Shown here: one piece after another, positions 14,278-17,362 of the stretch
Position numbering within the stretch: position 1 is the first letter of the stretch
How the letters are laid out: each line of letters starts with the position of its first letter
Sequence record: OR844578
DNA: 51,807 nt
Source: Escherichia phage ECO26.1 3-1
Strand: one strand, 5' to 3'
The notes under the pieces: generated by a model
Seen by the model: only the letters and a program-made list of their open reading frames with translations
What the model was told of the DNA's origin: nothing
Database searches by the model: none
Position numbers and translations under genes: made by a program

Positions 14278-14303
14278 CGCTTTACCCAAGGACGGGTTAT
14301 AAT
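14278..14303 (+). promoter_or_regulatory. candidate MotA-dependent middle promoter (CGCTTTA-13-TATAAT)
   Basis: MotA-box-like cgcttta 14278-14284, 13-bp spacer, TATAAT 14298-14303. Confidence 0.4.
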
Positions 14304-14338
14304 GGTTTTGAGTTCCAATTCAATCTGAGGAAATAGTT

Positions 14339-15334
14339 ATGAGCATTACATCTGATGCGGTAAAACATGAAATTAACGGTTTATGTGCTTCACAGATTAA
14401 AGTGTGGTTTAAAGACCATAACGATCGCAGAGCACTTAATTATGAGCAAATTGCTATCCAAGTTCATCAATTACTGGTTAGAAAATTTGATTTTCATATG
14501 CCATCTGAAATCTATACTAATCTGCCACGAGCGCTTATTAAAGCGTGTAAAGGTTATGGAAAATCAATGGCTGATGGAATCTTCAGCGCGCTGAATAAAC
14601 TTAACGTTCTGTCGATGATTAACTCTAACAACATCCTGCGTAATCTAGGACGTACTGATTTGTTCGGTCGTGAACAGTGTAAAATGCCTTTGAAATGGAT
14701 TGTTGCTCATCTTAACGAGAACCAAACACGTTTTATGGCCGTAACAGCACGTTTACAAATGGGCCTAGATCGTCAGATGAACTTTAAAACTCATCCATGT
14801 TATTCAGGTTCAACAGACTTTTATAAATGTGAGCTTCAAAAGGTTGCAGGTAAAACTGTCTTAGTAGTTCGTGTAACGTTTGAAGGACGACGTCAAGGAT
14901 ATTTTGACCTAATCGGCTCTGGTCTTAAACATTGTGGATTTATCGACGAAGTTGATATCAAGCGAGACGGCATTGGATACCGTATTGGATATGTTTGTAC
15001 TCTTAAAGAAGAGATTTCAGGACCAGCACCAGGACTAAAAGACGTTAGATATAAAGACGAGTTCGTTGAAGAAATAAAAGAAGTTGAATATGATATCAAC
15101 CAAGAAGATGCTCTTAAAGACCTTATTGATGAACTGAACCAAGACGTTATTCCTGTTCAGAAATTTGAATCAAAACATGCTGAGCAAATCAAATACTTTG
15201 AAGCTTTGATTAACGAACTTAATGTAACTATTCAACAGACTGACGATGAAATCTCACGATTAGCAGGCTTAAATGGTAAAAATAAAACAGAACGAGCTAA
15301 TCTTATTCAAGTAGTAAAACTTCTTAAGGAATGA
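14339..15334 (+). CDS. hypothetical protein (331 aa), C-terminal coiled coil
   Basis: SD GAGG; long ORF; no family recognised. Confidence 0.6.
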   Translation: MSITSDAVKHEINGLCASQIKVWFKDHNDRRALNYEQIAIQVHQLLVRKFDFHMPSEIYTNLPRALIKACKGYGKSMADGIFSALNKLNVLSMINSNNILRNLGRTDLFGREQCKMPLKWIVAHLNENQTRFMAVTARLQMGLDRQMNFKTHPCYSGSTDFYKCELQKVAGKTVLVVRVTFEGRRQGYFDLIGSGLKHCGFIDEVDIKRDGIGYRIGYVCTLKEEISGPAPGLKDVRYKDEFVEEIKEVEYDINQEDALKDLIDELNQDVIPVQKFESKHAEQIKYFEALINELNVTIQQTDDEISRLAGLNGKNKTERANLIQVVKLLKE

Positions 15335-15363
15335 TGTACAACCAAGGATGGTTGGAGTATAAT
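15335..15363 (+). promoter_or_regulatory. early promoter ending in TATAAT; 27-bp block tacaaccaaggatggttggagtataat duplicated at 16357
   Basis: -10 TATAAT 15358-15363; identical block before the next gene. Confidence 0.55.
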
Positions 15364-15389
15364 AAATTTTTCAACATGAGGAATATAAA

Positions 15390-16349
15390 ATGGCTTTTAT
15401 TACACGTAAAGAACTTATCAAAGAATTTACCTCGAACGCATATACTCCAGGACCTAATCCTATCCGTATGCCTGTAAAGACTCCTGAAGAGATTGAGGAA
15501 GTCTGTTCATATTATGGGATTACTTCTCGTAAGTTTACTCAATTTGAATGCGTTACTAACACACCCGTTAAAGAGTTCATTAAAAATGGTGAGTTCAGCC
15601 GTTTATTAGCCAAACAGAAACTTCGTAATTTTTGTATTGGCGGTGAAGGACAATATTTCGCTAAGCAGTTCCGGAATAACCTTAACAATCTGATGGCCAT
15701 TGCTTCTCGTATTCGTCCTCAAGCAATTAACATGAAACATTTGAAATATACTTATGATAAGTTGGAAATCATGGTTATCAGTGAGAATGAGTTCACTCTT
15801 ACGTATAAACCTAAGAATGATAACGTTGCTCGTGTATTTCACCAAGCGTTGGAAGTTTTAGGTGATAATATCCACCAGATTAAAGCAATTTATTCTCGTG
15901 AGCTTAATATTATCGACCCTATCAAGAATAAGGGCCATATCGCTATCCAAGCTCGTGTATCTATTGGTAAAAAGGTTCCTGCGCCATGGTGGCACAAAGA
16001 CTCTGAATACTATCAAAATCTTAAAAAGGAAAATGCATTGTTTGAAGGCAATATTACAGCAACACCAGTCGGTAATGCAGAGGTTCTAGGCGCATATTCT
16101 CCAGCACAATCTGGTATGTTTAAAGGTTTGCCAAATGTGTGCAAACTGTCGGCAGTAAAACTAAATGTTTCTAATGACCTTCTTCCGGCCGAAGATTACC
16201 ATTATAATCAAATCAAGGCCACTATGGACCAACTGTCTGTTGAACTTGACAAAGCACAAGCTAAACTTCGTGATGCTCAAAGTGTTGTAACGAATCTCCA
16301 GTTGCAGTATTCTAAACTTTTTAACGCAATGAATGCATTAAAATCATAA
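15390..16349 (+). CDS. hypothetical protein (319 aa), C-terminal coiled coil
   Basis: SD GAGGA; long ORF. Confidence 0.6.
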   Translation: MAFITRKELIKEFTSNAYTPGPNPIRMPVKTPEEIEEVCSYYGITSRKFTQFECVTNTPVKEFIKNGEFSRLLAKQKLRNFCIGGEGQYFAKQFRNNLNNLMAIASRIRPQAINMKHLKYTYDKLEIMVISENEFTLTYKPKNDNVARVFHQALEVLGDNIHQIKAIYSRELNIIDPIKNKGHIAIQARVSIGKKVPAPWWHKDSEYYQNLKKENALFEGNITATPVGNAEVLGAYSPAQSGMFKGLPNVCKLSAVKLNVSNDLLPAEDYHYNQIKATMDQLSVELDKAQAKLRDAQSVVTNLQLQYSKLFNAMNALKS

Positions 16350-16353
16350 AATA

Positions 16354-16383
16354 GTTTACAACCAAGGATGGTTGGAGTATAAT
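16354..16383 (+). promoter_or_regulatory. early promoter GTTTAC-18-TATAAT (duplicate of cassette at 15335)
   Basis: -35 GTTTAC 16354-16359; -10 TATAAT 16378-16383. Confidence 0.55.
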
Positions 16384-16411
16384 GAATCTATCTTAACGAG
16401 AGGAAAATATT

Positions 16412-17362
16412 ATGACACGTTCACATTACATTGAATACTTTGCAGGTCTTATCGCTAACGTTCATGCCCAACGTGCTTCTGGTGCACTAGGATTTGATGT
16501 TCCACACCGAGATGTAGTAAGTGGTATTCTTCGCGATTTTGGTACATACATAGGCCAAGAAAATCATATCTGTAAAGATACTCAAAATGCGTATTCTCAT
16601 TCGTTAGGGACGTTGCTTCAATGGTTCAAACGTTCTCGTTTATTATCTTCTACTGTAGCTCGCGATAACATTAAAAACTTTATGAAGCCGAGCTTTATTA
16701 AATCTGTGACATCTAAAACCGATTTGGTTGAATTCACTATTGTTAATGATGTTAAAAAGACTCATTTGGCTGATTGGTTATCTACCATTCCTGAAACTAA
16801 ATTTGCTGATAAATTTGCTTGTGAATTCAATAACCAAGTGAATATGCTTTTTAAACATTCTCGTAAATTATTCACAGGCGGCGATGATCGTACAAATAAA
16901 GTTCATGTTAAAGATTGGGTTACTGCAGTATTCAAACCAACCGGTAATGGTAACGCATCATTATCAATTGATATCCAGGTTCCTTATTACTACTCACGTA
17001 ATCTCGGTACCATGAAAGCCGAAGAAATTAATAAGCGCAACAAAACCATTCGTTCGCTGTCTTATAAACTTCGTATGATGTTAAGAATCATGGACGTGGT
17101 AGAAATGTATGATGAAACCGAAGATAATGGTTCAATGTTATACAGTTCTCGCATTCAAATTAAGTTGAAGAACCCTAACGAGTATAAGCCTAAACCTATT
17201 AAAGAACCTAAAGTAGAAAAAGTTGATAACTTAAGAGAAGAACGCGAATATCTCAAATCTCGTCTGAAAGAAGTCGAAGCCCAGATTGCAGAACAAACTA
17301 AATCGTTAAAAGCTCTGAACGCGAAAGCGGATGGTTTACGAAATGCCATTGAGGTGTTATAA
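16412..17362 (+). CDS. hypothetical protein (316 aa), C-terminal coiled coil
   Basis: SD GAGAGG; long ORF. Confidence 0.6.
   Translation: MTRSHYIEYFAGLIANVHAQRASGALGFDVPHRDVVSGILRDFGTYIGQENHICKDTQNAYSHSLGTLLQWFKRSRLLSSTVARDNIKNFMKPSFIKSVTSKTDLVEFTIVNDVKKTHLADWLSTIPETKFADKFACEFNNQVNMLFKHSRKLFTGGDDRTNKVHVKDWVTAVFKPTGNGNASLSIDIQVPYYYSRNLGTMKAEEINKRNKTIRSLSYKLRMMLRIMDVVEMYDETEDNGSMLYSSRIQIKLKNPNEYKPKPIKEPKVEKVDNLREEREYLKSRLKEVEAQIAEQTKSLKALNAKADGLRNAIEVL

Follow-up and report, generated by a model that had tools for sequence, protein, structure and literature searches.

A putative Mosigvirus nrdC.6/nrdC.5/nrdC.3 accessory array with PeSL-type promoter cassettes in Escherichia phage ECO26.1 3-1

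A promoter-early stem-loop (PeSL) is a stem-loop that lies between the -35 and -10 elements of a strong early promoter, in a hyperplastic region and adjoining non-essential genes (PMC2839356; PMC4122927). PeSLs are associated with insertions and deletions (indels) (Arbiol et al. 2010, PMC2839356; Comeau et al. 2014, PMC4122927), and when the stem-loop of an RB49 PeSL was set in front of lacZ, expression of the reporter fell about as much as with a strong terminator (PMC2839356). PeSL sites in PST/T4 have been placed at about 43, 47, 50 and 51 kb (PMC2839356; PMC4122927), and those at 50 and 51 kb fall within the T4 coordinates of nrdC.3-nrdC.5. Expression of T4 nrdC.5 by itself is enough for a deletion mutant to plate again on cells with the Dsr1 sirtuin defence (Srikant et al. 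2022, PMC9391042), gp49.2, which is encoded a few genes downstream of nrdC.5, inhibits OLD (PMC13096335) and NrdC.1 inhibits Septu (bioRxiv 10.1101/2025.11.20.689424), so that the neighbourhood has the look of an anti-defence island. The counterpart of this T4 segment is described here in Escherichia phage ECO26.1 3-1 (sequence record OR844578), where a stretch of 51,807 nucleotides, referred to as the window, carries three tandem genes, here called g1, g2 and g3, the second and third of which are preceded by an identical block of 27 bp.

Taken as a whole, the account considered probable is that these genes form the nrdC.6/nrdC.5/nrdC.3 array of a Mosigvirus, that the array has an anti-defence role, that its promoters are carried on PeSL-type cassettes and that the cassette before g2 arose by duplication.

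The three genes and their families

The region is 97-98% identical in nucleotide sequence to many Mosigvirus (RB69-like) genomes. Open reading frames (ORFs) were confirmed where an earlier note on this DNA (the original prediction) had placed three tandem genes for proteins of about 320 aa, with intergenic gaps at the array of 62, 55 and 62 nt:

14339 to 15334, plus strand: g1, 331 aa, a member of the NrdC.6 family and possible distant paralog of g2 and g3
15390 to 16349, plus strand: g2, 319 aa, NrdC.5 family (Pfam DUF7235)
16412 to 17362, plus strand: g3, 316 aa, NrdC.3/NrdC.4 family, a remote paralog of g2
17362 to 17667: nrdC.2-like gene, the next after g3

Whilst the original prediction could recognise no family for these proteins, all three match catalogued families of unknown function in Pfam or PHROG. 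The protein of g2 covers the whole of the Pfam DUF7235 profile (positions 1-307 of 307) and scores 400.9 bits (E = 5.5e-120), the cut-off being 30; T4 NrdC.5 matches the same profile with 420.6 bits (5.3e-126), and the two share the PHROG family phrog_2351. The genomic position of g2 also matches that of NrdC.5, after nrdC.6, before nrdC.4 or nrdC.3 and upstream of nrdC.2 and nrdC. T4 NrdC.5 and g2 are alike in their full-length family profiles, their place in the array and their C-terminal coiled-coil ending, but g2 has an early promoter cassette of its own, whereas in T4-type phages the gap between nrdC.6 and nrdC.5 is 8-70 nt and has no cassette, so that nrdC.5 is there probably co-transcribed with nrdC.6.

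The match of g3 is to phrog_1435 (1.5e-105, positions 1-333 of 334), a family which also includes nrdC.4, and its identity is 57% to T4 NrdC.3 and up to 78% to the RB6-type allele. Precomputed annotation places Pfam PF26897 on all g3 homologs, g3 itself having no Pfam match in a library that lacks PF26897. Some NrdC.4-family proteins (P0070 and P0083, for example) are recorded as coming from Bacillus cereus (a 171.5-kb contig), Enterococcus faecalis, Salmonella or E. coli, and the likeliest reading of these bacterial-labelled entries is that phage genomes of the T4 type, or contaminants, were deposited as bacterial assemblies.

For g1 there is a full-length match to phrog_2257 (4.3e-127, profile positions 1-303 of 303), with 33-37% identity to NrdC.6 of T4 and RB6 and homologs in 741 phage records by tblastn. 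The reference nrdC.6 of T4 ends early, at 275 aa, and RB6 (L006:1965-2852), SG1 and ACG-C40 have an intact ORF of 295 aa; in T4 the coding sequence for the conserved C-terminal tail (...SSKAKSEREKLIKIVDLLKS) persists further downstream, in the +2 frame (L003:4700-4860; NC_000866 at about 51995-52150), and the early end comes either from a frameshift or from a sequencing mistake in the reference.

Gene order in the window aligns with the T4 segment from nrdC.8 to nrdC.2, and the comparison of synteny among T4-like phages that the original prediction had proposed maps g1, g2 and g3 to T4 nrdC.6, nrdC.5 and nrdC.3, in agreement with the family profiles. Judged by these two lines the region would be the nrdC.6/nrdC.5/nrdC.3 accessory array of Mosigvirus, a variable segment between nrdC.8 and nrdC.2. 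Mosigviruses differ from T4 in having no nrdC.4 and in having their nrdC.7 downstream of nrdC.2. In the window the nrdC.7-like gene, which encodes a membrane protein, lies at 17667-18080, downstream of the nrdC.2-like gene, and in T4-type phages it lies upstream of nrdC.6 (the T4 copy is L003:3552-3953), a change of position that reads as a local rearrangement of gene order between genera.

The label thioredoxin is given in many GenBank records to nrdC.3, nrdC.5, nrdC.6 and other nrdC.N genes. No Pfam match to a thioredoxin-fold domain was obtained for g1, g2 or g3, and the architecture of the g3 model is also different. A thioredoxin identity was rejected for g1-g3, as they have no Pfam match to thioredoxin or glutaredoxin and the predicted fold of g3 is another one; with no thioredoxin domain present, the label seems to have been propagated from the locus name nrdC.N.

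The AlphaFold2 (AF2) model of g3 has a predicted local distance difference test score (pLDDT) of 81 and a predicted template modelling score (pTM) of 0.72, and consists of five N-terminal helices (3-88), an alpha/beta domain (93-258), a low-confidence linker and a C-terminal helix (275-315). The model of g2, made from an alignment of 33 sequences, has a mean pLDDT of 41 and is unusable for fold comparison, the order of secondary-structure elements in this low-confidence model being the same as in g3. A C-terminal coiled coil had been predicted for all three proteins. It is upheld for g3, where the AF2 helix is joined by a heptad test reached in 0/200 shuffles, and less firmly for g2, where the heptad test of the tail also gives 0/200 but the predicted helix (267-318) comes from the model with a pLDDT of 41; for g1 it did not reach significance.

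Pairwise BLAST among g1, g2 and g3 finds no similarity, and it is at the level of profiles that g2 and g3 prove to be related. NrdC.3 and NrdC.4 have a profile-profile probability of 97%. In hhalign comparisons of NrdC.5 with NrdC.3/4 the probability was 92.6% (P = 4.7e-7) with larger alignments, 96.7% (P = 4e-10) once a bridging protein was added and 94% (P = 1.2e-7) with the coiled-coil tails cut away. The bridging protein, P0139 (315 aa, phrog_26858), came from an exhaustive hidden Markov model (HMM) search in which 1.84 billion representatives yielded only 11 relatives. Its whole sequence matches phrog_1435 (2e-9), and its last 72 aa match DUF7235 (1.3e-12, above the Pfam cut-off); residues 63-315 align to the NrdC.5 profile and residues 1-242 to the NrdC.3/4 profile. 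In Klebsiella Marfaviruses (Klebsiella phage EI) its gene is present once, at the position that corresponds by synteny, immediately upstream of nrdC.2 and nrdC. A search for related loci with the NrdC.3/4 alignment returned 7 loci and no new diversity. Because of the profile-profile similarity and the bridging P0139 it is concluded that g2 and g3 are ancient paralogs derived from one gene at this locus, and this remote paralogy of the anti-Dsr1 family with NrdC.3/4 is a modestly new point. The same two-helix block (...LS..A...L.NF/LG... followed by ...N....L...A.R...) stands in register in all three alignments that concern g1, which is probably, though not demonstrably, a more diverged member of the same family. 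The pairwise and profile alignments that had been suggested thus relate two of the three proteins by profile, with pairwise BLAST blank and the case of g1 only suggestive, and the possibility, raised at the outset, that the proteins are unrelated does not hold for at least g2 and g3.

Further upstream, a nrdC.10-like gene at 12266-13267 encodes a P-loop protein (GAAGIGKT) with weak Pfam matches to AAA_22, AAA_16 and a STAND-NTPase-like family, as well as a weak helix-turn-helix (HTH) match at its C-terminus.

Promoters, the repeated cassette and its hairpin

Each of the three genes was originally credited with a promoter of its own, and predicted promoter sites do stand before all three, that of g1 being of a different, MotA-like type. 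The elements of the promoter regions are as follows:

14278 to 14303, plus strand: predicted MotA-box-type (middle) promoter of g1, with CGCTTTA at 14278-14284 and the -10 element TATAAT at 14298-14303
15335 to 15363, plus strand: early-type promoter cassette of g2, with the -35 element TGTACA at 15335-15340, a 17-nt spacer and the -10 element TATAAT at 15358-15363; block at 15337-15363
15339 to 15354, plus strand: hairpin CAACCA-AGGA-TGGTTG in the g2 promoter spacer, followed by GGAG at 15354-15357
16355 to 16383, plus strand: early promoter cassette of g3, with the -35 element (G)TTTACA at 16355-16360, a 17-nt spacer and the -10 element TATAAT at 16378-16383; block at 16357-16383
16359 to 16374, plus strand: second copy of the hairpin CAACCA-AGGA-TGGTTG, in the g3 spacer, followed by GGAG at 16374-16377
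17335 to 17363, plus strand: early-promoter-like site (TTTACG-17-TATAAT, TG present) inside the 3' end of g3 and before the nrdC.2-like gene; annotated as T4-early-like in phage SA79RD

The block before the second and third genes is exact, the 27-mer TACAACCAAGGATGGTTGGAGTATAAT being identical at 15337-15363 and 16357-16383. No further copy with up to 3 mismatches was found in the 51.8-kb window, nor in 100 shuffles (0.00 expected), so that with only two copies the block is not something carried by every early promoter there. The repeat extends to 43 nt at 86% identity, and in the comparison of DNA repeats across 13.5-18.2 kb that had been asked for it is the sole repeat, with no other found there, including between the three genes themselves. 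Both copies coincide with matches to sigma-70/T4 early promoters, TGTACA-17-TATAAT before g2 (10/12) and TTTACA-17-TATAAT before g3 (11/12), which are among the best in an 8.5-kb scan where the total number of promoter-like sites is not above that in shuffles. The g3 cassette fits the T4 early pattern GTTTAC-N14-gtgg-TATAAT, and the 27-bp block reads as the spacer and -10 element of a T4-type early promoter. The intergenic region of 62 nt that holds the g3 cassette (16350-16411) matches 244 phage records, 188 of the 244 over at least 80% of its length. An indication from the cassette BLAST of 3-4 places per record was set aside as probably chance matches of 11-12 nt, a local search repeated in the window and in 50 kb of vB_EQ1 giving, besides matches as short as these, two cassette copies only. 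The site at 17335-17363 forms the downstream boundary of the array.

The MotA box has the consensus (a/t)(a/t)TGCTT(t/c)A and stands about 12 bp upstream of a -10 element TAnnnT. The site before g1 reads aaaCGCTTTA, 13 nt, TATAAT, in which the GCTT core and the spacing fit this consensus and the first base is C, not T. It contains a degenerate form of the cassette core, CCAAGGACGG, with a 4-bp hairpin (ACCC/GGGT) at 14284-14297, and in the near-identical phage SA79RD it is annotated as 'T4 middle promoter GCTT(N13-15)TATAAT'. Orthologous sites in T4, before nrdC.7, and in WG01, before nrdC.6, read CGCTTTA-TA-CCAAGGATGG-TATAAT. The other matches to CCAAGGATGG with one mismatch in the window (6051 and 11761) lie inside coding sequence and have no promoter context, and were discarded.

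Upstream regions were compared in nine phages of three genera. The hairpin of the array, a 6-bp stem with an AGGA loop placed between the -35 and -10 elements, belongs to a wider set in which the core CCAAGGA(T/C)GG, or CAAGGATG before T4 nrdC.4, occurs in the promoter spacers of different array genes. Cassettes of this kind stand before nrdC.7 (MotA-type), nrdC.4 and nrdC.3 in T4-type phages, before nrdC.6 (MotA-type) and nrdC.4 in Dhakavirus WG01, and before nrdC.6, nrdC.5 and nrdC.3 in Mosigviruses. The core corresponds to the loop and its closing pairs; the stem differs among versions but remains paired, and a hairpin is predicted in every variant, as in CAACCA-AGGA-TGGTTG (the window), CCACA-AGGA-TGTGG, AGCCA-AGGA-TGGCT, TTATACCA-AGGA-TGGTATAA and CATCC-AAGGAC-GGATG. 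Across 9 distinct variants 84% of stem cells are paired, compared with 59% in shuffles, and covariation scores 0.587 where shuffles give 0.14, neither value being reached in any of 500 shuffles; four pairs have changed on both sides, and registers slid along the stem give 22-46% pairing. This covarying AGGA-loop hairpin, common to array promoters in three genera, is again a modestly new point. The folding energy of the window hairpin is about -7 kcal/mol, a scan for terminator patterns did not flag the g2 and g3 hairpin sites, and no Rfam family matched in the region. Scanning IMG/VR for CCAAGGAYGG-N(0-7)-TATAA gave, among the matches listed, mostly unrelated single ones.

Downstream of the -10 elements several leaders (15366-15385 and 16387-16405 in the window, and also in T4 and WG01) contain a pyrimidine-rich stretch predicted to pair with the GAGGA Shine-Dalgarno sequence, as in AUUUUUCA...UGAGGAAU before g2. 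Such pairing might modulate translation of the promoter-proximal transcript.

From these features the cassette of the array appears to match the PeSL type. The likeness consists in a sigma-70-like early promoter with a stem-loop between -35 and -10, non-essential genes in a hyperplastic region, repeated copies around one gene and indels between close relatives. There are also differences, as the stem-loop in the window is short and not rich in G/C, lacks a U-tract and has an AGGA loop that does not vary, the cassette family is confined to the nrdC array in the roughly 80 kb covered whereas classical PeSL copies are dispersed, and the array cassette also exists in a version with a MotA box, that is, as a middle promoter.

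History of the cassette and turnover of the array

No cassette stands before nrdC.5 in T4-type or Dhakavirus relatives. In Mosigvirus moha a direct repeat of 65 nt (95% identical) lies on both sides of nrdC.5, and its upstream copy consists of the last 22 nt of the nrdC.5 ORF with the stop codon, followed by the cassette. As this repeat includes the 3' end of nrdC.5, the cassette before g2 would be a copy of the one after g2, and we infer a Mosigvirus-specific duplication that is later than the duplication of the genes and not its relic. Between nrdC.6 and nrdC.5 moha has a membrane ORF of 66 aa, 45% identical to the WG01 ORF at that place, which is missing from the window; here the stop codon of g1 abuts a cassette whose -35 element is truncated to TGTACA.

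In Mosigviruses the cassette of nrdC.3 could be taken for a hybrid of two T4 cassettes, with its 5' half from that of nrdC.4 and its 3' half from that of nrdC.3. Dhakavirus WG01 has no nrdC.3, and the Mosigvirus nrdC.3 cassette shares 27 of 30 positions with the Dhakavirus nrdC.4 cassette, the proteins being about 22% identical.

Genes of the array have been lost and replaced in relatives. In ACG-C40 (L008:5727-6135) the array is reduced to nrdC.6 and two fragments, one of 71 aa from the N-terminus of nrdC.5 and one of 45 aa from the C-terminus of nrdC.3, and in Pinarejo (L009:5936-6149) nrdC.6 is lost except for a 45-aa C-terminal remnant; both arrays can be read as natural deletion derivatives. 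The arrays of T4 and RB6 are about 95% identical except in the body of nrdC.3 (T4 L003:6995-7921 against RB6 L006:4995-5924), where identity is 45-80%, with a sharp return to 100% at the last 35 nt or so, and this fully conserved segment is the counterpart of the early-promoter-like site in the 3' end of g3. The RB6-type nrdC.3 is closer to the Mosigvirus gene (78% in amino acids) than to that of T4 (60%), while its flanking genes are 91-97% identical to those of T4, a pattern that points clearly to allele exchange between genera limited to a single gene.

The original prediction had seen modular duplication, or shuffling of promoter-gene units, in the array. Duplication of genes is borne out for g2 and g3 as an ancient event and is only suggestive for g1, but the identity of the promoters is not its relic and goes back to a separate, recent copying of the cassette. 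Shuffling of units accords with the published PeSL model and with the indels and allele swaps between relatives.

How the array might work can be proposed along the same lines. The products of g1-g3 would be non-essential proteins, about 320 aa long and probably produced ahead of late gene expression, with a common layout (taken from the g3 model) of N-terminal helical domain, alpha/beta domain, flexible linker and C-terminal coiled-coil helix. Those of g2 and g3 would go back to one ancestral gene, which Klebsiella Marfaviruses retain as a single copy at this site. Each cassette would give the gene behind it a separate transcription start, and in read-through RNA it would put a stem-loop between cistrons. 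The short direct repeats, 1,020 bp apart around g2, could offer homology for the deletion, duplication or exchange of modules, and duplication of a segment made up of the nrdC.5 3' end and the cassette would have produced the g2 cassette in Mosigviruses.

Competing explanations and possible function

A number of observations weigh against this account. The identity of g2 to T4 NrdC.5 is only about 24%, so that the anti-Dsr1 activity may not be conserved, and as the g2 model has a pLDDT of 41 the paralogy with g3 rests on sequence profiles. For g1 the hhalign comparisons with both other families give P of about 0.02-0.05, which is not significant, and the heptad periodicity of its C-terminus is not significant against shuffles. 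The covariation test has only 9 distinct and partly related sequences behind it. With folding energies of -6 to -11 kcal/mol and z-scores of -0.4 to -2.9 the hairpins are weak as well as short, and they have no U-tract, which makes a terminator activity like that of the RB49 PeSLs doubtful. No cassette was found outside the array in about 80 kb; the window of 51.8 kb, together with 50 kb of a near-identical genome, gave the array copies only, and the T4 and WG01 copies also lie within the array. Lastly, the deletion ends in ACG-C40 and Pinarejo are not at cassettes; with some breakpoints outside them, the cassettes are one contributor to the plasticity of the array and not the only one.

Could the three genes simply be unrelated orphans that are similar in length by chance, with a profile similarity due to coiled coils or biased composition and a block that is a chance or convergent strong promoter? 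The blank pairwise BLAST, the separate families kept by both PHROGs and Pfam and the non-significant comparisons of g1 all agree with this, but g2 and g3 remain similar at 94% (P = 1.2e-7) without their coiled-coil tails, the natural intermediate P0139 matches both families over overlapping regions, and an identity of 27/27 that includes the 17-nt spacer, with a match in 0/100 shuffles, is not to be expected by chance. Such an origin is thus very improbable, and for g2 and g3 it is largely refuted. Selection rather than recombination might also have kept the two blocks identical, if the CCAAGGA(T/C)GG core were a DNA operator that binds a phage or host factor between the -35 and -10 elements and co-regulates the array. 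The central CA-AGGA-(T/C)G is indeed invariant in 9/9 cassette variants from three genera, the core is found in both MotA-type and early-type promoters and always in the spacer, and the cassette is more conserved than the genes downstream of it (27/30 positions against about 22% protein identity). An operator is nevertheless unlikely, as the compensatory changes at flanking stem positions point to structure rather than a fixed sequence, selection on an operator leaves unexplained why the 65-nt repeat of moha reaches into coding sequence, and there is no known candidate for the binding protein.

If structure is what is conserved, the hairpin might act mainly in RNA, as a signal for processing, stability or attenuation on read-through transcripts, possibly with cleavage by RegB at GGAG, and its overlap with the promoter would then reflect tight packing. 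The stem covaries, the T4 nrdC.4 variant has a G-U pair that works in the sense RNA only, GGAG lies directly 3' of the hairpin in early-type cassettes, a near-identical phage has an annotated 'endoribonuclease' gene where T4 regB would be expected, and there is the precedent of the RB49 stem-loop and its effect on lacZ. The missing U-tract, the short stems with their modest folding z-scores, the lack of GGAG in the T4 nrdC.4 cassette and in MotA-type cassettes and the lack of an Rfam match tell the other way, and a role mainly in RNA is regarded as possible but the less probable case. It is compatible with the explanation preferred here, that of a Mosigvirus array with PeSL-type cassettes, and refines one part of it.

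Concerning function, an inhibitor made before capsid synthesis fits a defence such as Dsr1 that senses the capsid protein, Dsr1 being triggered by the phage major capsid protein (PMC13581612), and the products of the array would in this way be inhibitors produced ahead of late proteins such as the capsid protein. By analogy with NrdC.5 and its neighbours the most likely role of the array would be that of a set of diversified inhibitors of host immune proteins. DSAD1, an inhibitor of DSR2, is comparable in that it is a phage protein which blocks a defence of the SIR2-type NADase kind triggered by a phage structural protein; it is a functional analogue only, no relationship of sequence or fold to the array proteins having been found. 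A bolder proposal, to be taken as speculative, is that NrdC.3, NrdC.4, NrdC.5 and probably NrdC.6 are one rapidly diversifying family of immune-sensor inhibitors, with paralogs and alleles tuned to different capsid-sensing receptors of the Dsr1/Avs7 type or to other defences, and with the AGGA-loop cassettes as a device for gain, loss, swapping and amplification.

The locus is real and coherent and is mostly known biology, not a new kind of system. Three genes of RB69-like phages that are annotated as hypothetical, and often mislabelled as thioredoxin, nevertheless gain a concrete context, in which g2 would be the counterpart of the only known anti-Dsr1 protein and at least one of its neighbours the remote paralog of it, all of them lying in an island where recent work has located three further anti-defence functions. 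Proteins of the NrdC.3, NrdC.4 and NrdC.6 families are thereby nominated as anti-defence candidates, and the array may serve as a small and well-defined example of promoter-cassette duplication and module exchange in a phage that is of use both in therapy and as a model.

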